Source: a virus. From it: DNA of 64,000 bases. Where the stretch lies: IMG/VR virus record IMGVR_UViG_3300036045_000007; one strand, given 5' to 3'. Position 1 is the first letter of the stretch; every line of letters begins with the position of its first letter. Below, piece by piece: positions 21,532 through 56,054 of this stretch. The notes under the pieces were generated by a model that worked only from the letters and a program-made list of their open reading frames with translations, was not told where the DNA came from and searched no databases. The translations under genes and the position numbers were made by a program.

Positions 21532-21714
21532 ATGCCATTGAAGAAGGGATCGAGCGACGAGACCGTAAGCTCAAACGTCTCCGAACTACGCCACTCTGGA
21601 TACCCGCAGAAGCAAGCCGTCGCCATCGCGATGAACGAGGCAGGCCGATCCAGGGTGGGAGTTCGGAAGCGGAAGAAGAAGAAAGTCGGTGTCAAAAAAA
21701 GTGGCGACAGTTAG
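21532..21714 (+). CDS. small basic protein
   Basis: 60 aa: [37 protein letters not shown] plus a Lys-rich tail. Resembles a widespread small QAVAIA-motif family (from memory, unverified). Confidence 0.5.
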
Positions 21715-21743
21715 TTGACAGTCACCCTTCGCCCGATTACAAT
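21715..21743 (+). promoter_or_regulatory. sigma70-type promoter (TTGACA-17-TACAAT) of the moron
   Basis: TTGACA 21715-21720, 17-nt spacer, TACAAT 21738-21743. Preceded by AAAGTGGCGACAGTT (box at 21703-21712). Confidence 0.6.
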
Positions 21744-21784
21744 TTTTGCCATAGGAGCGTGTCCCTTCGGAGGGCATGGGTTCA

Positions 21785-22204
21785 ATGGCGAACTCTGGTT
21801 GCTGCATTCGCGTTGCAGTCGGGAGCTTGCTGCTCACCGCAGCATGGCTCAAGTACACCAGCAATTCCCACGTTGACGTTCTCATCATCAAGGCCGAGGC
21901 TATGCTCGGCATCTGGCTAATTTCCGGGTGGGCATATCGCTACGCCTGGACAATCACCATCTTGCTCTTCCTTGGCGCCATCCCGCTGAACGTCCATGCG
22001 ATGTTCACCGGCGAACCGTGCGCCTGTTTCGGCAACGTAGTGCGGCTTCAGCCCTGGGTCACAGGCGTTCTGGACCTGGGCGTGATCGTGTTGTTGGGTG
22101 TCGCCAGTCCAAAGGCAAAGGGAGTTCGCAATGAGAACGGATCGAGTGCTGTGGAGTCTTGGTGTCGCGTTGCTCACATTAAGCGTCATCGCCGCGCCGA
22201 GTGA
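21785..22204 (+). CDS. MauE/DoxX-like 4-TM membrane protein
   Basis: Four hydrophobic helices with a CACFG motif between TM3 and TM4. Start is 21776 or 21785 (GGAGGG upstream). The last 74 nt overlap the next gene. Confidence 0.5.
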   Translation: MANSGCCIRVAVGSLLLTAAWLKYTSNSHVDVLIIKAEAMLGIWLISGWAYRYAWTITILLFLGAIPLNVHAMFTGEPCACFGNVVRLQPWVTGVLDLGVIVLLGVASPKAKGVRNENGSSAVESWCRVAHIKRHRRAE

Positions 22205-22415
22205 TGCCGCGCCTGTCCAGTACAAAGTCGCCGAAACGCAACGCTGCGACGGCGACTCGGTATGCAATCCATCGACGACGGACCAGTGCTTCCTGAAGTA
22301 CAACAGCAACCCCCCATGCACTGGCGGGAATTGCAGCCAAACGACAAAAAAGACGGAGTGTGGTAAATGTAAGTGCAAGGACGACGGTTCCCAATGTCTT
22401 TGTCGTTTGAACTAG
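22131..22415 (+). CDS. secreted cysteine-rich mini-protein (10 Cys)
   Basis: ATG at 22131 after AAGGGAG. Signal peptide MRTDRVLWSLGVALLTLSVIAAPSDA. Mature ~68 aa with 10 Cys, including ECGKCKCKDDGSQCLC. Confidence 0.55.
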   Translation: MRTDRVLWSLGVALLTLSVIAAPSDAAPVQYKVAETQRCDGDSVCNPSTTDQCFLKYNSNPPCTGGNCSQTTKKTECGKCKCKDDGSQCLCRLN

Positions 22416-22422
22416 GAGCATC

Positions 22423-23352
22423 ATGAAGAAGACAGCGTTGGTAGTCGCGGCGGCTCTGCTCGGTGGCGGCGCCGACTGGCAGGATGCAGCCAAGGGATGG
22501 CAGGCGTATCGAGAGGGAGCACGGAAGCTCCAAGGATCGTACACCTGGGACAGCGTAAAGTCCGGGCCCGAGCAGGGCTGGCGAACCAGGCGTAATTACC
22601 AGATCAGGCAACGCAGCGGGTGTGCCCTGTTCATGGAGCAGTGCGTCACCAATAACAACGAACCTGATCCGGTCGGTTGGGTGTGGGTGCTCAACGAGAA
22701 CTATGGCTTCGAGCTGAAGCGCACTCAGTGCGATGGTCCGTGGACGCTCCATTCGATGGACGACAAGCTGAGTGACGGCGTGCAATTCGACCTGGCCGGT
22801 GCCCCGGCAACGCGGGTTGATGCCGTCTCTCTTTGCCCGGTGAGCCTAGCCAGCATCGTGCCGATCAACCGGCAGTCACAGATTCACACCATCGACGCCG
22901 ACCCCGCATTCTCGTTGGTGAGCATGGCGCCGGAAGGTGATCTGGTGAGAGTGACGTTCAGCTACGGCGATCAAGTCGTGCGCGGCGGCTGGATGCTCTG
23001 CGATCCGAAGCGCCTGTGGATCATTCGTGAGTGTGAGACGCGGATGGCGTGGGGCGACACGACCGGCACTGTCCGTGTGACAATGGACTATGACGACGGG
23101 TCGTTCCCGATCCTGCGGCACATGGCCAAACTCAAGCCGCCGACCAAGCCTCCCGGCTGGACCGGCGAGGATCACTACAACTTCGATCTGAACCAGGCCA
23201 AGGCGTCTGAAGATGAGTTCACGTTACCAGCGTTCGGCTTCGCCGAGCTTCCTCAGTTCGAGAAGCCGAGCCGCTGGTACTTGTGGGTTGGCGGGGTGGG
23301 CGTTGCGTGCCTGCTCGCGGCACTCATTTGGCGTTGGCTGGCGACTCGTTGA
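22423..23352 (+). CDS. secreted protein with C-terminal membrane anchor
   Basis: 309 aa. Signal peptide MKKTALVVAAALLGGGA. C-terminal FTLPAFGFAELPQFEKPSRWYLWVGGVGVACLLAALIW anchor. TAGGAG upstream. Confidence 0.6.
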   Translation: MKKTALVVAAALLGGGADWQDAAKGWQAYREGARKLQGSYTWDSVKSGPEQGWRTRRNYQIRQRSGCALFMEQCVTNNNEPDPVGWVWVLNENYGFELKRTQCDGPWTLHSMDDKLSDGVQFDLAGAPATRVDAVSLCPVSLASIVPINRQSQIHTIDADPAFSLVSMAPEGDLVRVTFSYGDQVVRGGWMLCDPKRLWIIRECETRMAWGDTTGTVRVTMDYDDGSFPILRHMAKLKPPTKPPGWTGEDHYNFDLNQAKASEDEFTLPAFGFAELPQFEKPSRWYLWVGGVGVACLLAALIWRWLATR

Positions 23353-23587
23353 CTTCAATCGAGTTCACACTGATCCAGCCACGGAATATGTAGCGCTGGC
23401 CTTCGATCTCGTTGGTCGAGCACCGCCCGCGCCGGCTCGCTGACGGTCGAGGCGTTCTCGTGGGCGGGCGGCTGTCTGGTCGTGAGGGACGCGGATGGCG
23501 ATGAGATTGTCATGTCGCGCGCCGACGCGGGGAAACTCGCCCCCGTGCTCGCGCGGTTCGCGGAGACGGGGGCGGTGTAGAGGGGGG

Positions 23588-23890
23588 TCACGCGCGATGC
23601 CGGTTGACGTAGCCCAATTTTTTCCCAGCCCAGACGCGCAGTGGCGAGTCGGGCAGCAAATCAATCAAATCCTGCATGGTCATGCCCGCGCGGGCAGCCT
23701 CGTCCCACGCCGCGCATATCGCCGTGCGATCGCGCGACCGGCCAAATAGCCGGGCCGCGACTAGTTTCTCCAGGGCGGTCGCCGCGGCCCAGTTCTCCGG
23801 CCAGCCCATTGCCCGCGCCAGTTCCGTGGGAACCGTCGCGGGCATGGCGAGTGTCGGAGGCACGGCGGCGACTATTCGTGGCATGTTCAT
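23588..23890 (-). CDS. hypothetical protein
   Basis: 100-aa ORF, last gene of the minus-strand block, ATGA coupling with the upstream gene. Confidence 0.45.
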   Translation of the reverse strand: MNMPRIVAAVPPTLAMPATVPTELARAMGWPENWAAATALEKLVAARLFGRSRDRTAICAAWDEAARAGMTMQDLIDLLPDSPLRVWAGKKLGYVNRHRA

Positions 23891-24129: not shown

Positions 24130-24276
24130 CGTTAATCTCCCTGCCCGCGCTCGCGGGCTGTTAGTGGTCCCGCTCGCGCGGGGGAGGTATAGGTTCCTGT
24201 TTAGCGTCCCACCCGCGCCGTTGTGTAACGACCTGGCCGTTTACGCAACCGGATCACGGCGGGGCGGGACGTGTTT

Positions 24277-24564: not shown

Positions 24565-24626
24565 TTTTCCATCCCCCTCACCCCCACTCGCGGGGGTCGC
24601 GTGTAGTCGTTGTTGACTACACTTTA

Positions 24627-24654: not shown

Positions 24655-24659
24655 TAGTG

Positions 24660-24902
24660 CTATCGGTTTTTTTCGCGTTTTTTCCGAGATTTTTTCTCTT
24701 GCTGTAACTCGGTGCGGCGCTTGAAGTTGGGATTGCCGACCGGGAGTTTCACGAACGAATCGATATCGCTGGTGGAAAAATACAGGTCGCGCCCACGCAA
24801 CGCGGGGGTCAGTCTGCCGTCCATGACCAGCCGCCGCACGCGGCCAGGGGTGACGTTGAGCCGCGCGGCGGCCTGAGCGGTGGTGAGTAGATTAGTAGTC
24901 AT
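24660..24902 (-). CDS. excisionase/MerR-type HTH DNA-binding protein (candidate regulator)
   Basis: LLTTAQAAARLNVTPGRVRRLVMDGRL helix-turn-helix. ATG at 24902 lies only 7 nt after the -10 of promoter 24910-24937, so the mRNA would be leaderless. The track start 24932 would lie upstream of that TSS. Confidence 0.6.
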   Translation of the reverse strand: MTTNLLTTAQAAARLNVTPGRVRRLVMDGRLTPALRGRDLYFSTSDIDSFVKLPVGNPNFKRRTELQQEKKSRKKREKNR

Positions 24903-24909
24903 TCCAGCA

Positions 24910-24937
24910 ATTGTAACGCTGGCGTTAACCATGTCAA
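24910..24937 (-). promoter_or_regulatory. sigma70 promoter (TTGACA-16-TACAAT) with second copy of the operator
   Basis: Minus strand reads TTGACATGGTTAACGCCAGCGTTACAAT. The palindrome TAACG-N4-CGTTA is at 24914-24927. Confidence 0.6.
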
Positions 24938-25026: not shown

Positions 25027-27282
25027 TTATGCCGCCTCTTGAAAGCCTGCGGCTTGAAGCCGCGTCTCCTCATCCGTGAACAACTCAGGGAATAACGTCC
25101 GTGCTTCCGCTTCCATCTCGTTCATCTGGGCGCCGAACTCTTCGAGCGTCATCGGGCTACCGTTCGCACTGCCGACCTTCACCCACTGCCTGGTCGGGCA
25201 ACCCTCGTCGATCCGCTCGGCCAGGCTCTTGGCCAGTGCCATCTCGATCCCTTCGTCGCCGGACATGGCGACCAAGCCGTCGCTGCTGAACTTCCCTTCG
25301 ATGGCCTGAGCAGCGGTGAGCTTGCGGCCCATGAGGGACATCGCCCTGGCCTGCATCGTCTCGTTGTAGAACAGGTAGTACACCTTGCACGGCAGGCGTT
25401 GTCCGATCCGCCACGACCGGCGACTGGCTTGCCGCAAGGTGAACAGGTTGTACCCGGTCGCGTAGAACACGAGCGTCGGGAAGTTGTGCTTGCCGCCCTT
25501 GTCGAACAGATCGAGCCCGGTCTCCACCAACTTCGGGTGTGAGATAATCACGTCGTTCTTGGGACCGTGCCGCTCGATCCATTCCTCTCGCTTCTTCAGC
25601 TCGACCGCAGAGGTGAGCACCTCGGCCTTAACCCCGGCCTTGGTGATGAGGTTTTTCAACCGCGTGGCGACATCCCGTTCGCCGGTCATGACGGTGTATA
25701 CCCAAACCTGGCGTCCTGCCCGGCGCTCTTCTTCGATGATGTCGAGTAGCTTCTGTTCCTTCGGCCTGATCGTCCGTTCGTCGAAGTTGGCTGGCTTGAC
25801 GACGGGAATGAAGCACGTGCCGCCCATCGCATCGTTGCCGTAGTAGCCAACGGTATCCCATCCGAACGGGTAGTCCGGGTAGGCGAGCAGGGTTTGAAGG
25901 AACGTGCCGAGGAACCGCTTGTCCTTCCTGGCAACCATGTCCTTGATAACTTCCTCCATGATCTTCTGGATGCGTAGGTACTCAGGACCGATCTCGCTGT
26001 CCAAGTCCACGCCGCACACCGTCTCTTCGAGGACGGGCAAGTTGGCGGCTACCTCTTCCAATCCCAGGAACACGGCGTTCTGCATAAGGTGCCGACCGAA
26101 CAGCGTGGGCATGATGCCGGGGCGAATGTACTTCTGCGTGTTCTTCGACGTGCCACGGCTCTGACGGTTCGAGTCGCTGGCCCGCTCTCGCTCAGTCACT
26201 CTCGTCTCAATGCGTCCGTACTTCTCACTGAACGCAGTCACCTGGCTCCAGGCAAAGCCCTCTTCAACCAGACTGGTAGGCGACAGTCTGAATAGCAGCG
26301 TGCGAACGTGCTCGGCGTAGCCGCCGATCAACGTGCCGGTCAAGGCCAGGCATTTGCGAGCCGACGCTGCGAGGGCCCCGAACGCATTGGCCTGGGCGGT
26401 GTTGGCTCCCTTCTCCTCGTGTGCCTCATCACCGATGAAGTAATCGAAGTAGCCCTTCATCTTCTTGTGGATGAAGTGGGCTGGTTCATAGCGGCGAAGC
26501 TCGCCGGTCATCTGCCAGAGCGGTTCACCGCAGACGCTCAACTTGTCGGTCAGCGGATCACGCACCGGCAGATGGCACGTCATCCGCCTTCTCTGCAAAT
26601 CCTCGACCGCCAGGTTCTCTCCCATTTCAGCAGCCACGTCGTCGTTCTCTTTGCCCTTTTTGGTGAGGCGACCGCAGCAGCTCGGGCAGCGGATGAACGA
26701 TTCCTTGCGGCGTTGATACCAGACCGGCTCCCACTTGGCGCCGAGCTTGGCACGGTCGCGGGCGACGATGTACCACGTCGGCTTGTCCGCTGGCAACCAG
26801 CTCCGCACCATGCGAGTGCGGCCACGCTTGGTCTCAGGAACCAGGCGGTAATTGCCACGGTAGTACCGAACGAGATCACGGTGACTCTCGATGTGGATGA
26901 CGCGGGCGTTGGGCACGGTCTCAAGAATCTCCCGCTCCCACTTCTTCACCAGTTGGCCGGGACACATGACGATCGCGCGGTACGCCGCCTTGTGCTCGGT
27001 CATTCGGTTGTGCGTCTCGACGATGCCCTGGGCAATGAGCGTCTTGCCTACCCCCATCTCGCCGATCACCATGAGCGATTCGTTCTCGGTCAATGCTTTG
27101 GCACCAGCGCAGATCACGTGGGCCTGCGGCTCGAACGGTTTCCGCTTCAGCTCGGCGACGAACAGATCGTCCCGACCAGGCGAGTGCAGCGGTGTCATCG
27201 CCTGCTCTGCGTGCCTGGCCAGCAGTTTCCCATAAACTGCGAGGTACTCGTCTAAACTGTGCAGGTCTTCAATGGTCGGCAT
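25027..27282 (-). CDS. SNF2/DEAD-like superfamily-2 helicase with Zn-ribbon insertion
   Basis: Walker A GEMGVGKTLIA, DEAH box GDEAHEEKG, C-terminal helicase motifs (QASRRSWRIGQ). CPSCCGRL..CHLP insertion. Confidence 0.85.
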   Translation of the reverse strand: MPTIEDLHSLDEYLAVYGKLLARHAEQAMTPLHSPGRDDLFVAELKRKPFEPQAHVICAGAKALTENESLMVIGEMGVGKTLIAQGIVETHNRMTEHKAAYRAIVMCPGQLVKKWEREILETVPNARVIHIESHRDLVRYYRGNYRLVPETKRGRTRMVRSWLPADKPTWYIVARDRAKLGAKWEPVWYQRRKESFIRCPSCCGRLTKKGKENDDVAAEMGENLAVEDLQRRRMTCHLPVRDPLTDKLSVCGEPLWQMTGELRRYEPAHFIHKKMKGYFDYFIGDEAHEEKGANTAQANAFGALAASARKCLALTGTLIGGYAEHVRTLLFRLSPTSLVEEGFAWSQVTAFSEKYGRIETRVTERERASDSNRQSRGTSKNTQKYIRPGIMPTLFGRHLMQNAVFLGLEEVAANLPVLEETVCGVDLDSEIGPEYLRIQKIMEEVIKDMVARKDKRFLGTFLQTLLAYPDYPFGWDTVGYYGNDAMGGTCFIPVVKPANFDERTIRPKEQKLLDIIEEERRAGRQVWVYTVMTGERDVATRLKNLITKAGVKAEVLTSAVELKKREEWIERHGPKNDVIISHPKLVETGLDLFDKGGKHNFPTLVFYATGYNLFTLRQASRRSWRIGQRLPCKVYYLFYNETMQARAMSLMGRKLTAAQAIEGKFSSDGLVAMSGDEGIEMALAKSLAERIDEGCPTRQWVKVGSANGSPMTLEEFGAQMNEMEAEARTLFPELFTDEETRLQAAGFQEAA

Positions 27283-27461
27283 TACTTCTCTCCTTTCAGT
27301 TTTTCGGTCTTGACGCTGATGCGTTCAAGCATCACGAGGTCGTCCGGCTTGTCGCCGGCATCAGCCATCGCTTCGGCTTCACTAATAACATCCGCACGTG
27401 TGCCCTCTAGGTCGTACACAAGTTCGACCTGTGCTTTGATTGATACGCGATATACACTCAT
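27282..27461 (-). CDS. small hypothetical protein
   Basis: 59 aa from the ATG at 27461 (GGAGGG upstream, ATGA overlap with the upstream stop). The track ORF extends further 5'. Confidence 0.45.
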   Translation of the reverse strand: MSVYRVSIKAQVELVYDLEGTRADVISEAEAMADAGDKPDDLVMLERISVKTEKLKGEK

Positions 27462-28120
27462 GCGACCCTCCGAGGAATAGTTAGGTGTCGATTCCGCAAG
27501 CCGCTGCTGACCAGCTCGTCGAAGCCGTCGGTGTGCAGGTACAACATGCCGCTGAACGTCTGGCATCCGTCGCAGACTTCGAGCGTGGCGCCGCTGTGCC
27601 GATCACCCGCACATAACTTCTTCGCCATCCAGGGCACCCACTCTCGAATGAATGGCGTGGTATACCGTGGCATCTGCAACGCCAGTTCGAGTGCGGTCTC
27701 GTTGAGGACCGGGATGAATCCCTCGTCCATCGCAACCGAAACCATGTGGTAGGTGTTGTAACCCAGGCGTTGGGTGAAGTGGCGATAGCCATGCGGCGAC
27801 CGCACCAGATCGGCGCCGAGGTACTTCTTCTTGCCTTTGAATCCGTCGTGCGTGTAACGCTCGACCCGGAACGGTCCGTCGAAGTGAGCGAAGAAGTTGT
27901 GGTCCCCGCTCAGGTGAGCACGTGTCGCTTTGATGCTGGTCTCCGGTCCGGCGACGGACAGGAGCATGATCTGTCGGTTGAACACGGAGATGGAGTCGGA
28001 CCTCAGTTTGAAGCTCGACTGCTCGCCGTTGACGGTGAGGGCATGGACGTTCCAGTCAACTCCTGTGCCCGCAACAGGAATTCCGCCGAACACGCTCGGC
28101 GAATGCGCATGATCGACCAT
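27458..28120 (-). CDS. hypothetical protein
   Basis: 220-aa ORF, no domain recognised. The first 118 nt overlap the recombinase 3' end, so the true start may be internal. Confidence 0.45.
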   Translation of the reverse strand: MVDHAHSPSVFGGIPVAGTGVDWNVHALTVNGEQSSFKLRSDSISVFNRQIMLLSVAGPETSIKATRAHLSGDHNFFAHFDGPFRVERYTHDGFKGKKKYLGADLVRSPHGYRHFTQRLGYNTYHMVSVAMDEGFIPVLNETALELALQMPRYTTPFIREWVPWMAKKLCAGDRHSGATLEVCDGCQTFSGMLYLHTDGFDELVSSGLRNRHLTIPRRVA

Positions 28121-28791
28121 TCTTCCCCCTTCGTGGTTAATAGGTTGTGATCCCGAAAGTGCTTGTGGATTTCAGCCCAACTGAATCCGGCCAAGTGTTG
28201 TTGCGCGATGTACGCCATCTGCTGGCGTTCGATTTCGTTCCGAATCCTGATCTTCGGTTTGCCAGGATTTCTGCGGCGCCAAAGGAAGCCGTAGCCAGCG
28301 TGTCCGTTGACCGCGTACCCTTGTGCGCTTGCCCATCGCTTGGCTTCTCGAATGCGCTCGGCGATGCGGCCCCTCTCGAACTCGGCGATGCACGCCAGCA
28401 CGTTCTCAATCAGCGTTTGGATGTAGTCAGGTATATCGCCCTCGAAGAAGGGCATGTCGAGCATGTGAACTTTGATGTCTCTCTTGGCCCACGACGACCG
28501 CATGACGAGGAAGTCTTCCAGCCTGCGGAAGCCACGGTCGAGCTTCATCACGATTACATGATCGCCATTCTCCAATCGCTTGTTGAGCGCTGCACCCGCC
28601 TTGCGTTCGAGGAACTGATACTTCGCAGCGGACACCTTGTCGATGAAGAAGTCACCCCACAGCAGCTTGCTCGCCCACTTGTCGGAGTAGTAGGTGAGGA
28701 TGCGATCCTTCTGGACTTCGATGCCGTTGATCTGCCGGTCCGTCGATTCACGCACGTACCCGTAGGCGATTGGCTTTCGATCTTCGCTCAT
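28003..28791 (-). CDS. small serine recombinase (resolvase/invertase family)
   Basis: N-terminal YGYVRESTDRQ catalytic-Ser motif. Resolvase-core pattern (GDHVIVMKLDRGFR, IAEFERGRIAERI). C-terminal HTH (GFSWAEIHKHF). Confidence 0.8.
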   Translation of the reverse strand: MSEDRKPIAYGYVRESTDRQINGIEVQKDRILTYYSDKWASKLLWGDFFIDKVSAAKYQFLERKAGAALNKRLENGDHVIVMKLDRGFRRLEDFLVMRSSWAKRDIKVHMLDMPFFEGDIPDYIQTLIENVLACIAEFERGRIAERIREAKRWASAQGYAVNGHAGYGFLWRRRNPGKPKIRIRNEIERQQMAYIAQQHLAGFSWAEIHKHFRDHNLLTTKGEEWSIMRIRRACSAEFLLRAQELTGTSMPSPSTASSRASN

Positions 28792-28794
28792 GCT

Positions 28795-29865
28795 TTACTC
28801 CCCGAAGGTACGAATGCGACCATCCCCGGTCGCGGCCCGAATCTTGAGGACGATCCGCTCGCTGTATGTGGTCTTGGTCACGGCACTGCCATCGGCAGCT
28901 TCGCTCTCGGCAACGTCGCTTACGAACGTCACCTTGCTGGCCGTTCCTCGCACCACGTGCGGCTCCTCGCCGTCAGGATGCACGACGCCATCGAGCGTGC
29001 CGGACGCCAGCAGCAGGGCGATGTGTCCGGTGTTCAATGGCAGTGGCGGTGTTGCCTTCGGCAACTCAGCGGGCGGTCGAAGATGCTGACGCAACGGCGA
29101 ATTCATCAGAGCACGCGACAGCTCGGCGTCGGTGAAGTCCACCTTCTCCCATTTGGTCGGTGGACTCACGACTGGCGGATAATACAGGCCGATGTCTGCC
29201 GTATACTTCCACACCCTGAACTTCAAAGACTCGTCCATCTTGGTCGGCTTTGGTCGGCGCACCGCAGCGACGACGACCTCATCGTATGGCCGATGCTCTT
29301 CGGGGAATGGGAACATGGCGATCTCGTCGTACCAGGTGTGGAAGTGAGACCGCACTTCGACTTTTTGTGCCACGGTATGCGGGCACACGAAGAAGAGCAC
29401 CCCACCCGGCGCCAGCAGCATCGTTGCCCGCATCAGGAACGCGGTCTCAACACGCCGTCCGCCGCCAATCTCGTCATCGAACGGCGGGTTGACGTAGGCA
29501 AAGCCGAACGAACCGTTACTTATCGCACATCCTTGGAACGAAGCAGGTGCCAAGATGTTGGCGCCGAGCGGAAGCGCGTCGGCAACAGCCGCCGCGCGTG
29601 CCTCGTCGAGTTCAATAGCGTAGATCAGGTCAGGCGGCGTGCCCAAGTGCCCGGCGATCTGCTTCAGCGCCGCTCCTTGTCCTGCACACGGATCAATGAT
29701 CGGGGTCGTGCTGACTGGCCGGAGATACTGCAAAGCATGAGCGAGTGCCTCTGGCGGAATCGGGTAAAATCCGCCGCGTGCCTGTGCTGCAAGTCTAGCC
29801 ACGATCCACCCCCTTGCGGCGCGGATCGCGACCGCCGCGTTTCTTAATCTCTCCGACGTAGCCAC
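28795..29865 (-). CDS. N6-adenine DNA methyltransferase
   Basis: Motif I IIDPCAGQGAAL, then motif IV YVNPPFDDE. The GTG at 29802 would remove the 71-nt overlap with the HNH gene. Confidence 0.75.
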   Translation of the reverse strand: MATSERLRNAAVAIRAARGWIVARLAAQARGGFYPIPPEALAHALQYLRPVSTTPIIDPCAGQGAALKQIAGHLGTPPDLIYAIELDEARAAAVADALPLGANILAPASFQGCAISNGSFGFAYVNPPFDDEIGGGRRVETAFLMRATMLLAPGGVLFFVCPHTVAQKVEVRSHFHTWYDEIAMFPFPEEHRPYDEVVVAAVRRPKPTKMDESLKFRVWKYTADIGLYYPPVVSPPTKWEKVDFTDAELSRALMNSPLRQHLRPPAELPKATPPLPLNTGHIALLLASGTLDGVVHPDGEEPHVVRGTASKVTFVSDVAESEAADGSAVTKTTYSERIVLKIRAATGDGRIRTFGE

Positions 29866-30364
29866 GACTGATGCCGTACTTGGCGGCTATCTCTTTGTGT
29901 GTCCCAGGCATTGCGATGATCTCTTTGATCTGCTCATCGCTCAATTTGCCTTGCGGATGATCCGTGCCTTTGGCCAAGAGGTTGCACGTTCCGTGGTCAA
30001 CACGATCCTGAGCATTTACCGTCTGGGGCGCCCACGACAGGTTGTTGAATCTGTTGTTGTCCTTGTTGCCGTCAGCGTGCCTTGCTTCGTAGATGACACC
30101 AGCCTCGACTGGCTTGGCGCCTACGAATGATGTCAGCACTAGCTCGTGAACATGACGCACTCGCATCCTTCCCGCCGTGTAAATGTTCACACGATGGTAT
30201 CCGTCTTTGTCCACTCGCTCTTTGAGTGGTTTCCAGATTCCGGTTTTCTTCGACCAGACCGTGCCGCCGTCCCCGACAGCGTAGCCTGGGCAATAAGGCA
30301 CAAGCGCGAACACCTCGCCGTGGACAACTGGCACGATGCCAGCGCCCACACGATGGGTCAGCAT
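29795..30364 (-). CDS. HNH homing-type endonuclease with C-terminal HTH
   Basis: ATG at 30364 after AAGGAGAA. HVHELVLTSFVG..ARHADGNKDNNRFNNLSW (HNH_3-like). The C-terminal IAAKYGISRGYVGEIKKRG resembles sigma-70 region 4. Confidence 0.75.
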   Translation of the reverse strand: MLTHRVGAGIVPVVHGEVFALVPYCPGYAVGDGGTVWSKKTGIWKPLKERVDKDGYHRVNIYTAGRMRVRHVHELVLTSFVGAKPVEAGVIYEARHADGNKDNNRFNNLSWAPQTVNAQDRVDHGTCNLLAKGTDHPQGKLSDEQIKEIIAMPGTHKEIAAKYGISRGYVGEIKKRGGRDPRRKGVDRG

Positions 30365-30480
30365 CAAATTCTCCTTTCCGCAGACCGGCAGGTCCGCTAG
30401 AATGAAGTTGCGAAGACTCTTGCACAAGCGAACAAAGGCCGGGGACTGATAACCCCCGGCCTTGTTCGTTTCCTCACACG

Positions 30481-31341
30481 TCAATCCAATTCGGCGACCG
30501 CCTCGGCGTCGGCGATCACAGTTTCCAATTCCGCGTTCTCGGCCTTGAGCACCGGCATCGGCACCAGATTACCAAACACGCCGTTCAATCGCGAGGATCG
30601 CCGCAGAATGTTGTCATTCCGCAGCGGCTTCCACGTCTCCGTCACACAGTTGTATAGCGACCAGAGATTCCTCGGTCCATACAACTCGTGGGCGTCCTGG
30701 GTCAACGCTGCGCCATCGCCGCCGACGCCACGAGGCAGCATGAGACCGCCCGGCTGAGCCGCCGCCAGATACAGATTGGCAGCGGGCTTGACCATGTTCG
30801 TCGGCAGCACTTCCTGTCGCCACATATCGAGCAACAACGCCTTGGCCTCGACATCCTTGATCGGGATCGCCTTGAACGAGTCGAGCCACTTGGCGACCAG
30901 ATGGACGCGGTGCAACACAACTTCGAGCAGACCATCGGCGACCTTGGCCGGGTCGATTCTGCTCGTGTGCTTGCGGAAGCGTACCACTTCGCCTGTGAAT
31001 GCCAGGTTATCGCAGACAAACACCCTGGGACCGCCGCAGTAACCCATCGACCAGGCTTTGTCATGCGCGTTCCTGAATCCGAGAGCCAGACCTTGACCAT
31101 CCGGCATTCCCTTGTCAGTCACGTCGATGACGCCGAACATGCGGGCCCCGCCGTGCGACAACCCGTAGCTCTCTTTGAGCAGCGGGAAGCCACGGTTGCT
31201 CAGCTCGGCCTTGATGACATCGACGACTTCGATGTGTGGCACCGGCTTGTGTGACTTGGTTGCCGGTGGGGTCACGACCGCTCGAACCTCGTCGAGCGTG
31301 GCTGTCGTGCCTCCTGTGTGTAGCATCAGATTACCAGCCAT
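30481..31341 (-). CDS. DUF932-family protein (phage/plasmid-like)
   Basis: GGARMFGVIDV..LALGFRNAHDKAWSMGYCGGPRVFVCDNLAF pattern as in DUF932. ATG at 31341 after TGGAG. Confidence 0.6.
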   Translation of the reverse strand: MAGNLMLHTGGTTATLDEVRAVVTPPATKSHKPVPHIEVVDVIKAELSNRGFPLLKESYGLSHGGARMFGVIDVTDKGMPDGQGLALGFRNAHDKAWSMGYCGGPRVFVCDNLAFTGEVVRFRKHTSRIDPAKVADGLLEVVLHRVHLVAKWLDSFKAIPIKDVEAKALLLDMWRQEVLPTNMVKPAANLYLAAAQPGGLMLPRGVGGDGAALTQDAHELYGPRNLWSLYNCVTETWKPLRNDNILRRSSRLNGVFGNLVPMPVLKAENAELETVIADAEAVAELD

Positions 31342-31903: not shown

Positions 31904-31966
31904 GGTTGCGAACCTCAAGGGGTTGTCGAATTTGAAAATCCATCTTACCACAATGTCGCCAAATCG

Positions 31967-32221
31967 TCAACGATTTGACGCCTTTGGCTCCGGCCCTCGC
32001 AACAAAACGCGGTCGATGAATTCGCCGAGCCTGTCAATGGCCTCTTCGACCGTCGATGCCAGCGAAAACACTTTGCACGTCGCGCAGTTGTCGGGGTCGT
32101 GGTCACACTCGCAGGCATGGGACATTGCGATCATGAGCGGGTCGTTGAGCGCTTCCATTTTGCCGACCGATGGCCTCACGGATCGCAGTGCCTCTGCCTG
32201 CTTTTGGTTCAACTGTTTCAT
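31967..32221 (-). CDS. hypothetical protein
   Basis: 84-aa ORF, ATGA coupling with the upstream gene. Contains CECDHDPDNCATC. Confidence 0.45.
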   Translation of the reverse strand: MKQLNQKQAEALRSVRPSVGKMEALNDPLMIAMSHACECDHDPDNCATCKVFSLASTVEEAIDRLGEFIDRVLLRGPEPKASNR

Positions 32222-33938: not shown

Positions 33939-35118
<1,180 letters not shown>

Positions 35119-35122
<4 letters not shown>

Positions 35123-35289
35123 TCTTCGTAAATCGGTTCGTCGCAGTCATATGCCTCGAAAATGTCGGACCGAAAGCCCTTCATCTTCTCGGCGTGGCAC
35201 TGCGAGCACGAGTAGCACAGAAAGATTCCGTGCCCATCGTAGTTGTCGTCCTGGTACTCACCCGAACCACACGGACATTGACGAGGCAT
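35119..35289 (-). CDS. small Cys-rich protein (56 aa, not in ORF track)
   Basis: My translation: MPRQCPCGSGEYQDDNYDGHGIFLCYSCSQCHAEKMKGFRSDIFEAYDCDEPIYED. ATG directly follows the upstream TAG. Confidence 0.4.
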
Positions 35290-38990: not shown

Positions 38991-39017
38991 GGGCGATGAT
39001 CTTACCGCACGCGATCC

Positions 39018-39221: not shown

Positions 39222-39302
39222 GACCATAACCCACCCCTTACACCGCTGCACCATACCGCACCGCGTAGCACGGCGATTCGCGGATTTTTTCGCCGTCGCA
39301 AA

Positions 39303-39331
39303 ACCCTAGCTCGCAAAAAATCCGCTGTCAA
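39303..39331 (-). promoter_or_regulatory. sigma70-like promoter (TTGACA-17-TAGGGT) bracketed by an 11-bp inverted repeat
   Basis: Minus strand reads TTGACAGCGGATTTTTTGCGAGCTAGGGT. The inverted repeat GCGGATTTTTT (39280-39290) / AAAAAATCCGC (39315-39325) flanks the -10. Confidence 0.5.
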
Positions 39332-39434
39332 ATTTTCGGTCGAATTTTTTTTGCGGACCATTAGAGCCGCGCCCGCGCGATCCTCCTACTCGCGAACACC
39401 AATCCTTGCGCGCCTGCACGCACGCCCGCGTTCG

Positions 39435-39485
39435 TACCACACGCGCGTATCTTACCACGCCCACGCATACCCGCGCACGCGATCT
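39435..39485. repeat. three imperfect tandem ~15-18-nt units (iteron-like)
   Basis: TACCACACGCGCGTATCT / TACCACGCCCACGCA / TACCCGCGCACGCGATCT, read directly. Lies in the 549-nt ORF-free region. Confidence 0.35.
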
Positions 39486-39803
39486 CGCCAAACCCTATAC
39501 CTGCTCAGTGTTACCAATACCCCATAATCGCTGTATGTCGTAAGTCGTTGGTGGGTATGGTAGATGCGTCACGTACATGCCAATTTCTTGGCACGTTGGC
39601 AGCGATATTCACAACAGACAGGACATAAGCCTATGGCGTGTAAGGAGTTACTAAAACCCTACCCGCCCGGCCCCATCAAACCCTCCCAGGTCTCCGGGTA
39701 CACCACCACTGATTTTTAAGCCATTATCGCTCGCACCAGGACAGCGTAGGCCGCGTTTGGATTCAGAAAACGGACGGGGAGGCGTTTGAGAATTCGGGTT
39801 CGT

Positions 39804-40085
39804 CTAATGCGATTTCAGTGCCCTGGAAGTGGCATGTGGGCTTTTTACTGGCCAGGGTGGGCCAGGGTGTGTGAAAGGTGGAGTGAGCCCTTTGAGGTAG
39901 AAGACGTTTTGAGCGGTGAGGTTGTGATCGAGAACGAGGTCGAGCATGGCTGGTGAGACGACGATGAAGCCGTCAGCGGATCGGGCTGCGAACTTGGAGC
40001 CGGTGAGGTCGGAGTGACCGCAGGCTGGGAAGGTGGGAGCTGAGACGCCGGTGAGGAGGTCGAGCAGGTTTTGGGTAGCGTCCAT
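39804..40085 (-). CDS. hypothetical protein
   Basis: 93 aa from the ATG at 40085. Third codon positions mostly C, which looks coding, but there is no clear SD and no motif. Confidence 0.4.
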   Translation of the reverse strand: MDATQNLLDLLTGVSAPTFPACGHSDLTGSKFAARSADGFIVVSPAMLDLVLDHNLTAQNVFYLKGLTPPFTHPGPPWPVKSPHATSRALKSH

Positions 40086-40538
40086 GCTTACTGCCGATGT
40101 GGGTATGGAGAAATGGAAGAAGATGAGGAAAAATGCGCACCGTCCCCCTCTTGCGTCCGCCTCCGTGGTCCTCGTCCTCCTTGCGAGAGGGGTTGTCCAG
40201 TTCACTGTCTTTGGGGGTGGGTGGGGGTGGTTTTGACTCCACTTTTCCCTACCGCGCGCTCACCGCTGAACAAGTGTCAAGGATTAAACCTCGCACTGGA
40301 GTATCGAGTCCAGGCTGGCCTGGTCGCACCCTCTTGGCCAAATGAGGACTTTCCACCGTGCCCTGCCCTTCGGAGATGCGGTTTCCCGAGTCTACCGACT
40401 GGCGCCTCTGGCCTCACCCACGCGGGAGTTCACAACCGCCTATAGTTGGGGATCAGCGTGGGGTTCCCCTTGGGTTGTGGCCGATGAAGTTACCCCTTCG
40501 GTCGGCGGGATGATTTTAGGCTGGAGGGTGGGTTGGCG

Positions 40539-40682: not shown

Positions 40683-40937
40683 GGTGTGAACTCTGACGCC
40701 TCGAATGGACTCCCATCGTCACATCGGACATCAAGCACCTTGGCGGACTTTTTTGTACCGTAAGGCCAGGTACGTGTTTTCATGGTTCGGAGATCGCGAT
40801 GGGTGGTCATGTGATTGGCGGCTCGTTCAGGTGTCCGCCGTCTCGCCAGCCGGTGATCCAGCGACGATGATTTCGAGAAGGCGGGCGGTTGTGGTTGCCT
40901 GGACGCGGGCGTCTTGTTCCATGTTATATTGAGTTGG

Positions 40938-40966
40938 GTGAAAAATTGGCGACAGTTTGGTAAGAT
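40938..40966 (+). promoter_or_regulatory. sigma70-like promoter (GTGAAA-17-TAAGAT) with GGCGACAGTT box in spacer
   Basis: GTGAAAAATTGGCGACAGTTTGGTAAGAT. Same -35 / 4 nt / box / -10 layout as promoters 35093-35122 and 48786-48813. Confidence 0.45.
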
Positions 40967-41204: not shown

Positions 41205-41459
41205 ATGCGGCGTAGTGAACCTGGTGACTTCGGCGTGGTCATGGACAAGGAGGAGTTTCGCCAGCGGATGCTCAGCGAGTTCGACGGGCAGTTCAAGGGG
41301 AAGATGAGCCTCGACGAGCTGCTTCTGCGACCGCGAGTGGCTTTGTGGTTTTGCGACTTCGTTCGGGAGAAGAACCGCTGGTGGGATCTGCCCGACGACG
41401 TGATCCTGCGGTCGATTATGGCCGCGAGAAAGAACCCTGCGTTGAAGAGCGGTGTATGA
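41205..41459 (+). CDS. hypothetical protein
   Basis: 84 aa from the ATG at 41205 (GGAGG 8 nt upstream). The in-frame upstream extension of the track ORF 40914 looks non-coding. Confidence 0.5.
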   Translation: MRRSEPGDFGVVMDKEEFRQRMLSEFDGQFKGKMSLDELLLRPRVALWFCDFVREKNRWWDLPDDVILRSIMAARKNPALKSGV

Positions 41460-41779
41460 TGATCCTGATGCACGTCACCCACGAGAACGGTGAGATGATC
41501 GGTCACTTCAAAAACAGTTGGCACCGGGACGGCGGCAAGCCGCAACAGCGTGGAACGCCGATGGTCGTGGTAACGGAAGAGCTTCTGCGCGCGGGGATGG
41601 CGGACAATGGCGGGTACACTCGGGCCCAATTCCAGTTGGTCGGCGTGCTTGAATGGCCCCCGCTGAAGGGATGGAAGCGGAGTGTGCTCGGCTCGCTCAT
41701 TCCCAGGGCGGACGCGGAAGAGTTTCTGCGGATTCGCCGGTTGAAGCGCGAGGAAGCCCAGGCACCAACCCTCTTCTAA
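41456..41779 (+). CDS. hypothetical protein
   Basis: 107 aa, ATGA overlap upstream. GGYTRAQFQLVGVLEWPPLKGWKRSVLG is a motif I recall from prophage hypotheticals. Confidence 0.5.
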   Translation: MMILMHVTHENGEMIGHFKNSWHRDGGKPQQRGTPMVVVTEELLRAGMADNGGYTRAQFQLVGVLEWPPLKGWKRSVLGSLIPRADAEEFLRIRRLKREEAQAPTLF

Positions 41780-42867: not shown

Positions 42868-43101
42868 TCACTGCTTTTTCCATCCCGGCGCTCCTTGCGC
42901 TTGTAACAAGTTCTGTGCTCTCAAGGCGACGATGCCTCCCTCTCTCGCGATCTCGTCCATCAACAGCCACACATCGGTCAGCGCGTCAGAGACTCGCGTG
43001 ATCTCATCATTCAACAGCTCGATGTCAGCGTGTGCCGACGCCGACCGCCAGCGTTGGCGAATGGTCTGGATGTCCCCCTCCGTCAACACCTTTTTGCTCA
43101 T
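42868..43101 (-). CDS. hypothetical protein
   Basis: 77-aa ORF, ATGA coupling upstream. Confidence 0.45.
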   Translation of the reverse strand: MSKKVLTEGDIQTIRQRWRSASAHADIELLNDEITRVSDALTDVWLLMDEIAREGGIVALRAQNLLQAQGAPGWKKQ

Positions 43102-43412
43102 GGTACTTTGCCCTTCGATACTCTCGCGCGTACTTCTTTGCCGCCGTCATCGGACTTCCGAACAGCTTTTGTAGCTCGACCATTTCCTTGTGGTCCGCTC
43201 GGCTGCACCGGGTGTTCATCTTCAGGCTCCGCTCGTTGAGGAATACCGTTCTTCTCCATGAATTCCATGAGATCACTGCGATAGACGCGGCGATGACTCG
43301 ACCCTGGGATCAGCCAGCCGATCAACATGCCGTTGTTGATCCACCGGATCACGGTTTGCTGGCCCACGCCGAGGAAGCGAGCAACGTCGCCGGTCGTCAT
43401 CACGTCCTTCAT
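43098..43412 (-). CDS. excisionase-family HTH DNA-binding protein
   Basis: MTTGDVARFLGVGQQTVIRWINNGML..HRRVYRSDLMEFMEKNG is a typical excisionase/MerR-like HTH. Confidence 0.65.
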   Translation of the reverse strand: MKDVMTTGDVARFLGVGQQTVIRWINNGMLIGWLIPGSSHRRVYRSDLMEFMEKNGIPQRAEPEDEHPVQPSGPQGNGRATKAVRKSDDGGKEVRARVSKGKVP

Positions 43413-46528: not shown

Positions 46529-46530
46529 CG

Positions 46531-46896
46531 CTAGTCCTCTGGATGCCACTGTTCCTTGTGCATCTTCAAGCCCACGCTGGTTGTGAACACACGGTCGCAC
46601 TCGTCGCACTGGAACTTGACAGGCAGCTCCGGTTCCGCTGGCTCAAGCTCTTCCGGTTTCGGTGGTTCCTTCATGAGCACGCCAAGCCGTTCGAGATAGT
46701 GTTCGGTCATTCCCCATCGAGTGTGCGTCCTGCTCGACCCTTTGCGGTGCAGCATCGAGCAAACGCTGACGAACATGCCGAGCGTGTTCACGTGCGGCGG
46801 CACACATTTCAAGGCTTCCAAGATGGCGACTTCCTGATTGGGAGCGTCAACCACAACGTCAAGCGTTTGCCCTGAACGAACTCGCCAGCGACTCAT
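46531..46896 (-). CDS. protein with classical C2H2 zinc finger at C-terminus
   Basis: FQCDECDRVFTTSVGLKMHKEQWH fits F-x-C-x2-C-x3-F-x5-L-x2-H-x4-H. Start uncertain (ATG 46896 overlaps the upstream gene by 38 nt; GTG 46854 is an alternative). Confidence 0.5.
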   Translation of the reverse strand: MSRWRVRSGQTLDVVVDAPNQEVAILEALKCVPPHVNTLGMFVSVCSMLHRKGSSRTHTRWGMTEHYLERLGVLMKEPPKPEELEPAEPELPVKFQCDECDRVFTTSVGLKMHKEQWHPED

Positions 46897-48785: not shown

Positions 48786-48813
48786 ATCTTACTAAGTGTC
48801 GCCAAACTGTCAA
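48786..48813 (-). promoter_or_regulatory. sigma70 promoter (TTGACA-16-TAAGAT) with GGCGACACTT box variant
   Basis: Minus strand reads TTGACAGTTTGGCGACACTTAGTAAGAT. Lies in the divergent intergenic region 48762-48910. Confidence 0.55.
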
Positions 48814-51941: not shown

Positions 51942-51978
51942 CGACGCGAAGCACGGCTCTCGTGCAACCCAAGGGAAC

Positions 51979-52006: not shown

Positions 52007-52076
52007 ACTTTGGTCGCACGTGGCCGCTTCCATACTTTAACGCTTTACCAACCTAATTCCCTTGGGAGAAGTAAGC

Positions 52077-53190: not shown

Positions 53191-53203
53191 GGAGGATGCA
53201 GCC

Positions 53204-54219: not shown

Positions 54220-54222
54220 TCT

Positions 54223-55014
54223 ATGGGTTTTACCAGCAAGCTGTACCCAAACGAACCGATTTGGGATGAATCAACTCCTGACCGCGTGACTCATGCCTCG
54301 GAATTCGGTCGTGGCCTGCGTCTCGATCTGCGAAGCACGCCGTTTGGCGACATCCCCTGTGCTCCTGCGTTCCCGCAAGAACTTCTGATCCCTGAGTCCG
54401 ACGTCGAAGGATGGATCAAGGAGAAGGAAGAGCGGCAAAATCGGATCAGCGATCATTGCAACAAGTTCGGCCTGCCTCACAAGGACCAGGCGCAGACGAA
54501 CTACTGCTGGATCAACGCGCCGGTTCACTGCGTTGAGATCATCCGCCTGTTGCAACATCAGCAGATGGTTATTCTCTCGCCCGCGAGCTGCGGTGCGAAG
54601 ATCAAGGGGTTCCGCAATCAAGGCGGGTGGGGACAAGAGGGTCTCGAATACATTGTCGAAAACGGCGTCGTGCCGGTGAGCATGTGGCCAGCCAACGCCA
54701 TTGATCGGCAGTACGACAAGCCAGAGTTTTGGGCCGAAGCGAAAAAGTACCGAGTCACGGAATGGATGGAGTGTCGGCCACGAAGTTGGATCGAACTCGT
54801 CTCTTGTTTGCTCCGCAACATTCCGGTCGCCGTGGGCTACAATTGGTGGAGCCACGAAGTAACGGCGTGCGACGTTGTTTGGATCGACGGCACGTCGGAG
54901 CTGCGAATCAGGAACTCGTGGAAGGGTTGGGGCGAGAACGGCTTCGGCATCCTTCGCGGAAGCAAGAAGCTGGCCGACGATCAAGTTGCGCCGCGCGTCG
55001 CGATGGCGGCGTAA
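54223..55014 (+). CDS. papain-family (C1) cysteine peptidase
   Basis: Gln at -6 and Cys-Trp (QAQTNYCWINA), His (WWSHEVTACDV) and Asn-Ser-Trp (IRNSWKGWGENGFG) reproduce the papain catalytic signature. No signal peptide. Confidence 0.8.
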   Translation: MGFTSKLYPNEPIWDESTPDRVTHASEFGRGLRLDLRSTPFGDIPCAPAFPQELLIPESDVEGWIKEKEERQNRISDHCNKFGLPHKDQAQTNYCWINAPVHCVEIIRLLQHQQMVILSPASCGAKIKGFRNQGGWGQEGLEYIVENGVVPVSMWPANAIDRQYDKPEFWAEAKKYRVTEWMECRPRSWIELVSCLLRNIPVAVGYNWWSHEVTACDVVWIDGTSELRIRNSWKGWGENGFGILRGSKKLADDQVAPRVAMAA

Positions 55015-55089
55015 GAGGCTTGCCGCTCGGCGGGTCATCTTCTATACAGCCATAGCGTCAATTTGGCGACATTTACGAAAGGAGTGCCA

Positions 55090-55440
55090 ATGGCGGACTT
55101 TCATCCGTTGCCGGAAACATTTCCGGTAGTGCAGATCATCGCAGCGGTTCGGGACATCAAGAAGAAGAAACAGACCGGGGCACGTGCTGTTTGGCATGGC
55201 GCCGGGTACGGCATCAACAAGCTCGTGAAGGACGACGAGCCAATCCTGGGCTTGACCGCACAGGAAGAGAAAGACCTTGACCTGCTCTGCGACCGCGCAC
55301 TGGCTGTGTTGGAATCGACTGGCCGATCTGTCGGTGCGGAAACTGAGGGCGGGGTCGCAGCCGGGGCGATCACCATTGAAACGGTGATGTCCGTCCTCAT
55401 CCCGATCTTGCTCAAGATTTGGCCGATTCTCAATAAGTAA
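55090..55440 (+). CDS. hypothetical protein with hydrophobic C-terminal tail
   Basis: 116 aa from the ATG at 55090 (AAAGGAG upstream). Ends VMSVLIPILLKIWPILNK. A GGCGACATTT box variant lies at 55065-55074. Confidence 0.45.
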   Translation: MADFHPLPETFPVVQIIAAVRDIKKKKQTGARAVWHGAGYGINKLVKDDEPILGLTAQEEKDLDLLCDRALAVLESTGRSVGAETEGGVAAGAITIETVMSVLIPILLKIWPILNK

Positions 55441-55504
55441 AATCAGGCTCGGCACGTTGCCAGCCTGTCGGAGTGTTCAGGAAAGACTCATTAAGGAGTT
55501 TCAG

Positions 55505-55960
55505 ATGGTAGCTCGACTCATTGTAGTTCTCGCCGCTGCATTAGCGGTGCCAGCGTTTGCGTTCGCCGACGACCAGAAATTCGACATCACCAAGCCGAAG
55601 GCAGACGCGAAAGCAGCATGTGTGTGCGGCCCCAATTGTCCCTGTGCTCCATGTGATTGTCCAACAGGCACGACGATGACGCTCGTGTGGGACGGTCAAT
55701 CATGGAAGAAGACTGGCGGCGTCGCGTCAGGTCCGGTGAATTGCGCGGCTCAGCAAACGTACTACTACAGCCATTCCTACGGGCACGGTTGCAACGGCGG
55801 TCATGCCTCGTATGGCTGTAACGGCGGCGGTCATGGAAGCTATGGTAATGGTTACGGCTGCGCTGGCGGTCACGGCGGCGGTTTATTCGGTCGCCGTGGT
55901 CATGGCGGCGGCATCTTCGGAGGCGGTTGTGGGCTCTTGGGTCGTCGCGGCGGCTGTTAG
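55505..55960 (+). CDS. secreted Cys/Gly/His-rich protein (metallothionein-like CxC cluster)
   Basis: ATG at 55505 after TAAGGAG. Signal peptide MVARLIVVLAAALAVPAFAFA. CVCGPNCPCAPCDCP cluster. C-terminal GHGCNGGHASYGCNGGGHGSYGNGYGCAGGHGGG..GRRGGC. Confidence 0.55.
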   Translation: MVARLIVVLAAALAVPAFAFADDQKFDITKPKADAKAACVCGPNCPCAPCDCPTGTTMTLVWDGQSWKKTGGVASGPVNCAAQQTYYYSHSYGHGCNGGHASYGCNGGGHGSYGNGYGCAGGHGGGLFGRRGHGGGIFGGGCGLLGRRGGC

Positions 55961-55986
55961 ATTCAGGCCCAACCTGTTGTTGAAAT

Positions 55987-56020
55987 GCAGGCCAGCTTTC
56001 CGAAAGGCGAGCTGGCCTGC
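55987..56020 (+). terminator. terminator-like hairpin (11-bp stem, GAAA-capped)
   Basis: GCAGGCCAGCT-TTCCGAAAGGCG-AGCTGGCCTGC. The U-tract is weak (TGTGCTT). Confidence 0.5.
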
Positions 56021-56025
56021 TGTGC

Positions 56026-56054
56026 TTGACGGGACTGTCGCCGATTGGTAAACA
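56026..56054 (+). promoter_or_regulatory. sigma70-like promoter (TTGACG-17-TAAACA)
   Basis: TTGACGGGACTGTCGCCGATTGGTAAACA. The spacer contains CTGTCGCC, the inverted form of the GGCGACAG box. Confidence 0.45.

Follow-up and report, generated by a model that had tools for sequence, protein, structure and literature searches.

The 64,000-nt stretch analysed here (hereafter the window), taken from the 67,224-bp phage genome IMGVR_UViG_3300036045_000007, about 3.2 kb of which lie outside it, raises the question of why one short sequence recurs in several of its promoters. The initial annotation had pointed to a 10-mer, GGCGACAGTT (hereafter the box), and had read it as an operator or a specialised promoter element. 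The recurrence of the box in the main early promoters is a real and well-supported sequence feature, and we lean, if only modestly, towards the view that the repeat arrays built around it are repressive operators for a trans-acting phage protein at the non-structural transcription units.

Genes were mapped with a codon-usage caller, and part of the map was checked against independent gene calls on identical public contigs. By this map, about 11% of the window is intergenic (G+C content of the phage, ~59%). The exact 10-mer was recovered at 21703(+), 35103(-) and 40948(+), the first two sites having the 15-mer AAAGTGGCGACAGTT in common, and variants were confirmed at 48794(-) (GGCGACACTT), at 55065(+) (GGCGACATTT) and in inverted orientation at 56033-56042, between the hexamers of TTGACG-17-TAAACA; re-checking bore out every coordinate and sequence of the initial annotation. 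A seventh site that it had not listed, 31951-31960(-) with the sequence GGCGACATTG, emerged from a promoter scan and lies in the context TTGACG-atttGGCGACATTGtgg-TAAGAT (17-nt spacer, 31970-31942(-)).

The argument originally used against chance, namely that the expected count of a random 10-mer in the window is far below one, is invalid, because it takes no account of how many 10-mers might have caught the eye: this one pre-specified 10-mer has an expectation of 0.17 copies, and 1,295 distinct 10-mers occur at least three times in the window, compared with ~517 in Markov simulations. A statistic based on 10-mer neighbourhoods was likewise uninformative, with simulations attaining equal maxima. 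Location and longer motifs were more telling. All three exact copies are intergenic (P = 0.0013), and the two-strand search with one mismatch that had been suggested returned 15 matches (5.6 expected), six of them intergenic (enrichment P = 0.0035). Only nine 10-mers have at least three intergenic copies (0.55 expected), and three of the nine fall on the box. When intergenic 14-mers were grouped into families with up to two mismatches, the box formed the top family with five sites, compared with a maximum of 3-4 in simulations (n = 26). A 17-nt matrix (AWKTGGCGACANTTNGG) scored the seven sites at 19.5-27.7 bits, all of them intergenic, and the next match, which is coding, at 14.5 bits. In leave-one-out scoring, five sites reached 19-26 and 48794 reached 14.9; the inverted site 56033, at 9.8, is the weakest and least secure of the seven. 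The 14-bp consensus AWKTGGCGACANTT is asymmetric and lacks dyad symmetry, and its core is an 11-bp unit composed of A-W-K-T and GGCGACA. Box orientation agrees with the direction of transcription at six of the seven sites (two-sided P = 0.125), and the structural genes are without any box. A literature search on the motif returned only primers.

The surroundings of the box were analysed by scoring the 11-bp unit (AWKT+GGCGACA) at each offset from -50 to +50 around the seven sites. Only the offsets -22, -11 and +11 had at least three of seven sites at p ≤ 0.02 (top 2% of the intergenic background), with ~0.02 such offsets expected; 33 other copies of GGCGACA, most of them coding, served as a control and gave 0, 0 and 2 of 33 at the same offsets. 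Since the weaker copies sit only at -22, -11 and +11, the box appears as the core of direct repeats placed one helical turn apart, and in all likelihood two to four such repeats with 11-bp spacing make up an array in which it is the strongest unit. The repeat extends into the promoters themselves: a GACA is found both in the -35 hexamer and in the box, and the distance between the two is 11 bp in every case, also at 21703, where their order is reversed. Units independent of promoter elements are AGTTGGCTACA at 48829-48819, which has one mismatch to the core, CAAAGGCGTCA at 31986-31976, CATTGGTTACG at 56068-56058, CCATAGCGTCA at 55050-55060 and GTTGGGTGAAA at 40933-40943.

Sigma70-like sites matching at least 10 of 12 consensus positions are found seven times in the window (2.1 in simulations). 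Six of the seven are intergenic or at the 3' end of a gene, and these six face the next gene on the same strand. The box is present in three of the seven and in two further promoters with a TG extension; five of the seven box sites are in or adjoin promoter-like sites. As in sigma70-type promoters, their TTGACA-like and TATAAT-like hexamers lie 16-18 bp apart, upstream of genes and co-oriented with them. The layout -35 / 4 nt / box / -10 that had been ascribed to three promoters stands, the number being in fact four: in the promoters P48813, P35122, P31970 and P40938 the box begins exactly 4 nt past the -35 and ends 2-4 nt before the -10 (P ~0.002-0.016 for the fixed offset), so that the 14-bp motif occupies the spacer and touches neither hexamer. 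The geometry is broken at the other three sites, which lie upstream of a -35 (21703), lack a -10 (55065) or are inverted (56033). The box appears to be under a constraint of its own, being perfect at P40938 where the -35 is poor, and lying outside a spacer at 21703 and 55065. The distance from the box to the next start codon ranges from 15 to 248 nt. An unusual -10, TAAGAT, is common to three box promoters and two box-free intergenic sites.

The genes of the window form two divergent transcription arms that start at ~48.8 kb. The leftward arm (48.7 to 23.6 kb) contains many small genes as well as genes for methyltransferases, a DUF932 protein, a small serine recombinase and an SNF2 helicase. 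The rightward arm comprises a head gene, an envelope cassette, a RecE-like exonuclease and a DnaC-like loader, followed by virion genes; the virion proteins encoded include the major head protein and the portal.

P48813 (48786-48829(-)) stands at the head of the leftward arm and consists of a -35 TTGACA (48813-48808), a 16-nt spacer and a -10 TAAGAT (48791-48786). Its core unit GTTTGGCGACA (48807-48797) is preceded by ATGGCTTGACA (48818-48808), which contains the -35, and by the unit AGTTGGCTACA (10.3 bits, p = 0.001). Two further box promoters are internal to the arm. P35122, whose array spans 35095-35127(-), has a -35 TTGACA (35122-35117), an 18-nt spacer and a -10 TACAAT (35098-35093), with a core AAGTGGCGACA at 35116-35106 (10-mer 35112-35103) and a +11 unit GTTGGGTTACA at 35105-35095; it drives the DUF6948 gene 34751-35044 and the genes downstream. 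Directly downstream of the DUF6948 gene, about 35 tandem hexamers (AACCGG on the plus strand; 34524-34763(-)) encode a (Gly-X)n protein. P31970 (31942-31986(-)) has a -35 TTGACG (31970-31965) and a -10 TAAGAT (31947-31942) preceded by TG, and carries four phased units, namely CAAAGGCGTCA, AATCGTTGACG (31975-31965, containing the -35), the core ATTTGGCGACA (31964-31954) and TTGTGGTAAGA (31953-31943). The operon that it drives encodes Zn-ribbon proteins, the DUF932 protein, an HNH endonuclease, a DUF6094 methyltransferase, a resolvase and the SNF2 helicase. The HNH_3 endonuclease (29795-30364(-)) has a weak Sigma70_r4-like C-terminal helix-turn-helix (HTH) and is probably a homing endonuclease inserted in this operon. 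In both internal promoters, the TGA stop codon of the upstream open reading frame (ORF) sits inside the -35 (T-TGA-CA at 35119-35122 and T-TGA-CG at 31967-31970, both (-)); the intergenic region therefore starts at the promoter, and no terminator precedes it.

Three of the four remaining sites lie on the plus strand. P40938 (40933-40966(+)) has a weak -35, GTGAAA, a 17-nt spacer and a -10 TAAGAT, the -10 element TGGTAAGAT ending at 40966; its units are GTTGGGTGAAA, which contains the weak -35, the core AATTGGCGACA at 40944-40954 (10-mer 40948-40957) and GTTTGGTAAGA at 40955-40965. It drives a leader of ~240 nt and two genes (41205-41779) that converge on the leftward arm. For the two proteins encoded there, single-sequence structure models were of low confidence, and a fold search with the first of them matched nothing. 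The box upstream of the moron promoter (21699-21743(+)) is formed by a core AAGTGGCGACA at 21699-21709 and a unit GTTAGTTGACA at 21710-21720 that ends with the -35; the 10-mer stops 2 nt before the -35 TTGACA (21715-21720), which is followed by a 17-nt spacer, a -10 TACAAT (21738-21743) and the MauE-like gene 21785-22204. This site is intergenic also by independent gene calls on the public contig L052. The site at 55065 (55050-55074(+)), with no recognisable -10, combines CCATAGCGTCA with a core ATTTGGCGACA at 55061-55071 (10-mer 55065-55074); a hairpin resembling a terminator (55017-55036) precedes it, and the ATG at 55090 follows 15 nt later. At the inverted site (56026-56068(-)), the core AATCGGCGACA (56046-56036) and the phased unit CATTGGTTACG are placed upstream of the gene for the RecE-like exonuclease (56077-57036), the core falling within the spacer of the plus-strand promoter-like sequence TTGACG (56026-56031)-17-TAAACA (56049-56054).

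Taken as operators, these arrays suggest the following course of events. Monomers of a phage winged-helix protein would bind head to tail along one face of the helix, starting from the high-affinity core unit, which in four sigma70-type promoters would fill the spacer immediately after the -35. The -35 hexamer itself (TTGACA, as compared with GCGACA in the box) would act as a weaker unit in register, so that occupancy of both would exclude the host RNA polymerase. Phage transcription should rely on that enzyme, because no phage RNA polymerase, sigma factor or known polymerase appropriator was found among the ~80 window proteins scanned, the sole sigma-like signal being the weak, sub-threshold Sigma70_r4 match in the C-terminal HTH of the HNH endonuclease. 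Box sites head nearly all non-structural units (the leftward early arm, its two internal promoters, the convergent operon, the recombination/replication block and the moron), and a single protein that extends over -35 and spacer could thus hold off or shut off all of these units together. The mode that we infer from this anatomy would be either early shut-off with negative feedback or maintenance repression. Between the two functions proposed initially, the anatomy favours the operator over the promoter element, given that the geometry is broken at three of seven sites, that the hexamers are near consensus, that other promoters carry a palindrome in the spacer, and that the box is part of 11-bp direct repeats, an arrangement typical of proteins that bind cooperatively.

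Two phage-encoded proteins have the excisionase-type winged-helix fold, 43098-43412 and 24660-24932. The better candidate for a box-binding protein is 43098-43412(-), a small winged-helix protein of the excisionase family (104 amino acids (aa)) which combines an HTH_17 winged helix with a basic, apparently disordered tail at the C-terminus. It scores 40.7 bits on the excisionase family TIGR01764, for which the cut-off is 28.8; its Pfam match to HTH_17 stands at 4e-11, and among NCBIfam models BldC comes second. In the PDB, its second and third sequence matches, both weak (E 0.08-0.16), are the BldC-DNA complexes 6AMK and 6AMA; the TV(I/T)RW motif of the recognition helix and the HRR of the wing are conserved. 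The protein is without a dimerisation domain, and its gene belongs to the operon driven by the box promoter P48813, so that negative feedback or early shut-off would follow from its own expression. On these grounds 43098-43412 is tentatively put forward as the protein that binds the box, an assignment that may well turn out otherwise. Of the three HTH proteins that had been proposed for binding assays, it alone has a fitting fold class. The second protein, 24660-24932, is also of the HTH_17 family, with 26.7 bits on TIGR01764, just below the cut-off.

The gene of this second protein is flanked by two promoters without a box, 24937-24910 and 24654-24627 (both (-)), which are near consensus (TTGACA-16-TACAAT and TTGACA-16-TATAAT) and carry a palindromic TAACG-N4-CGTTA across the spacer and the -10. 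Probably this palindrome belongs to a second operator system, one that is autoregulated and separate from that of the box. As the palindrome takes the position of the box, the phage appears to use the spacer as operator space for at least two elements.

The proposed arrays have close parallels among known regulators. The recombination directionality factors Xis, Cox and Apl bind head to tail and with high cooperativity to tandem repeats that have a period of one helix turn, and two of them, Apl and Cox, also act as promoter repressors (PMC7498355). The -22, -11 and +11 units form phased repeats of this type, and the likeness to lambda Xis, P2 Cox and 186 Apl extends to strong and weak units, promoter overlap and a small phage-encoded winged helix of the excisionase family, whose binding is here a prediction. 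Here, however, the arrays are short (two to four units), have one dominant unit and are spread as seven sites over 35 kb, whereas Cox and Apl act at one switch region plus an attachment (att) site; the window yielded neither an integrase partner nor an att site. A BldC site comprises two to four asymmetric direct repeats of the form AATT-N4-C (PMC5859096), and gp36 of phage D29 is a small MerR-like repressor acting on direct repeats (PMC12266134). Both are small MerR-like winged helices without a dimerisation domain that bind head to tail to asymmetric direct repeats, as is proposed here, and the BldC unit AATT-N4-C resembles AWKT-GGCGA-C, the number of repeats varying between promoters in either case. 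The repeat length is 9 bp for BldC, which is a cellular protein, and the gp36 repeats are 20 bp apart, as opposed to 11 bp in this phage.

Dispersed asymmetric operators are known from two other phages. The gp71 protein of L5 (Cluster A) recognises an asymmetric site of 13-14 bp that recurs over the genome, in promoters as well as in short gaps between genes, for the most part in the orientation of transcription (PMC9283540). The box is an asymmetric site of this size, with the differences that L5 has more than 20 sites, mostly outside promoters, and a two-domain monomeric repressor, whereas the present phage has seven, of which five are in promoters, and phased repeats flank them. No window protein matched an immunity-repressor family in PHROGs or Pfam; a gp71-like protein was thus not detected by these searches, gp71 itself not having been compared directly. 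C1 of phage P1 is one repressor acting on many dispersed asymmetric operators (22 sites with a 17-bp consensus; PMC8546580). Its operators are single 17-bp sites, whereas those described here are phased, few and promoter-centred, and neither a C1-like protein nor an immunity region was seen in the window.

Several observations weigh against repression by this candidate at these arrays. The flanking units are weak, and the matrix used to score them was derived from the same seven sites. The signals at -11 and +11 are partly confounded with the common -35 hexamer and a common TGGTAAGA; apart from the units at -22, just two, the -11 units at 40933 and at 55050, are independent of promoter elements. 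With 25.1 bits on the BldC model NF033787 (cut-off, 77), 43098-43412 is not a member of that subfamily, and the phage has further DNA-binding proteins to choose from, namely 24660-24932 (HTH_17), 59399-59752 (HTH_3) and a C2H2 finger protein (46531-46854). No tyrosine integrase was found among the scanned proteins, the only recombinase being a serine recombinase of 262 aa, and as no integrase was found, 43098-43412 may have no excisionase role whatever. A protein bound at 21703 could be an activator and not a repressor. The nearest relatives (contigs L054-L056, which have the SNF2 module with ~60% protein identity) are without the box, and the public contigs of five further samples match the phage at 100% identity and hence show no variation. 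A more far-reaching version, in which an excisionase-fold protein without an integrase partner is a global early repressor that nucleates on one strong 11-bp unit in register with the -35, uses the -35 as a second site, rivals sigma region 4 at seven dispersed promoters and perhaps activates the moron promoter from its position adjoining the -35, in a phage that may be lytic and infect Planctomycetes, is rather unlikely.

The C2H2 protein 46531-46854(-) is unusual for a phage: it has 107 aa and a C-terminal, classical, eukaryote-like zinc finger (FQCDECDRVFTTSVGLKMHKEQWH) that matches Pfam zf-C2H2 at 4.5e-5, just below the cut-off.

Among the alternatives, the box could be a specialised promoter element that is read by the host polymerase, perhaps in a phage-modified form, or by a phage activator or appropriator, and that marks the early class and raises or times its activity. 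Such an element would account for the 4-nt offset from the -35 fixed in four promoters, for the co-orientation of six of the seven boxes with transcription and for the recurrence of the -10 TAAGAT in box promoters and box-free sites. The hexamers of the box promoters are already near consensus, however, and an activator is therefore not needed; a promoter element also fits poorly with a geometry broken at three of seven sites, gives no role to the phased weaker copies upstream of the -35 and lacks a sigma factor, RNA polymerase or appropriator among the scanned proteins. We regard it as unlikely.

A host transcription factor might be the ligand instead, its site having been borrowed to couple the early promoters to the state of the host. 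In line with this idea, no phage protein is tied to the box by homology or context, and the motif has no counterpart in the known phage systems covered by the literature search; on the other hand, the Gemmataceae-like contigs with a related SNF2 module, ~60 kb in all, are without the box, and the phage encodes the exact fold class that binds phased direct repeats, which makes a host factor quite unlikely.

The box could also be functionless, either by chance or as a leftover from the copying of promoter segments. Three copies of a 10-mer are nothing out of the ordinary over 64 kb, at least one intergenic 10-mer with three copies arose in 39% of simulations, and the 15 nt common to the first two sites are what recent copies would show, but the likeness between sites ends sharply at a 14-17 nt motif with unrelated flanks, and the box is better conserved than the adjoining promoter hexamers. 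Moreover, the top matrix matches are intergenic at seven of seven sites, the 14-mer family exceeds all simulations, and the 33 other copies of GGCGACA lack the 11-bp phasing, leaving absence of function a very unlikely reading. A role in RNA, as a processing or protein-binding site in polycistronic read-through transcripts, would suit the sense orientation of six of seven boxes, the lack of a terminator upstream of P35122 and P31970, by which read-through RNA would hold the box, and the position of the 55065 box 5 nt before a Shine-Dalgarno sequence; it is extremely improbable in view of the variable distance to the start codon, the fixed register with the -35, which is a feature at the DNA level, the lack of an Rfam match and the lack of a common hairpin as judged by eye, with no folding run.

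Known elements were set aside as well, most of them by eye: a sigma54 -24/-12 element (GC at -12 not conserved), a -35 for an alternative or extracytoplasmic function (ECF) sigma factor (nothing conserved 16-17 nt downstream), a dyad or MerR-type operator (no symmetry, and spacers of 16-18 instead of 19 nt), LexA, DnaA or IHF boxes (no match) and the promoter of a phage RNA polymerase (no such enzyme found).

If the arrays are indeed repressive operators, the motif would define the early regulon of a phage lineage without cultured or sequenced close relatives, whose possible host is a Gemmataceae-like planctomycete, a group in which almost nothing is known about phage gene control. The parts would be compact, consisting of promoters close to consensus, which should be active in E. 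coli, an operator unit of 11 bp and a candidate repressor of 104 aa, and would add a further case of excisionase-fold proteins acting as dispersed regulators of transcription and not as accessories of recombination. It would be a familiar kind of phage control that opens no new class of mechanism.

Relatives of the phage were sought at several levels. A megablast search of 24 kb against GenBank phages gave no match, tblastn with the SNF2 helicase returned only matches of ~30% identity, and protein-seeded scans of viral, genome and metagenome contigs yielded no relative. In the protein database, identities reached at most 62% for the helicase and 36% for the 416-aa neighbour of P48813, and the HTH_17 protein was found only as itself. 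The pattern TTGACA-N4-GGCGACANTT had 51 single matches in viral contigs, approximately the number estimated for chance, with a second box at 0 loci; the longer pattern TTGGCGACANTKTGGTAAGAT had one match in metagenomes, in low-GC, eukaryotic-looking DNA, and none in genomes. The overlapping public contigs (L052, L053 and L058-L062; window 22618-46980) are all 100% identical to the phage. They come from the samples SRR8857719, SRR8857720, SRR7091382, SRR7091384 and Joint Genome Institute (JGI) 3300036046, and it appears that one clonal phage population was sampled in several data sets.

A segment of the leftward arm (25027-31341(-)) that encodes the DUF6094 methyltransferase, the small serine recombinase, a ~190-aa protein and the SNF2 helicase is syntenic in the metagenome contigs L054, L055 and L056, with ~60% identity of the helicase. 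These contigs have a G+C content of ~62% and also encode Ser/Thr kinases and ankyrin/HEAT proteins, and more distant helicase homologues (50-53% identity) carry Gemmataceae names. Together, these features are a hint that the host is a planctomycete or that a mobile module is shared. The related modules have a recurring motif of their own, TTTGTCAGCTG, which is located right after a hairpin upstream of the methyltransferase gene and again at the head of the module, there together with a CAGCTGAAC direct repeat (L054, 6085-6100; L055, 3915-3960 and 7475-7490; L056, 885-925 and 7295-7310). In L054 and L056, tRNA-like genes lie beside this motif; in the window, Rfam and tRNA scans were empty.

Two further observations concern other parts of the window. 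The region 39228-40538 comprises 1.3 kb without a convincing gene. It is faced by the promoter-like site 40542, a leftward TTGACG-18-TAAAAT (40542-40513), and contains a possible ORF (39804-40205), the stretch being largely non-coding. Two further TAAGAT hexamers, at 39454 within the stretch and at 39004 just outside it, have a ATCGCGTGCG motif in common. Finally, TTCCCTTGGGAG recurs at 52057-52068 and 58221-58232 (both (+)), 8-9 nt before the starts of genes 52077 and 58242, with a reverse copy at 51968, and may be a shared ribosome-binding or regulatory element.

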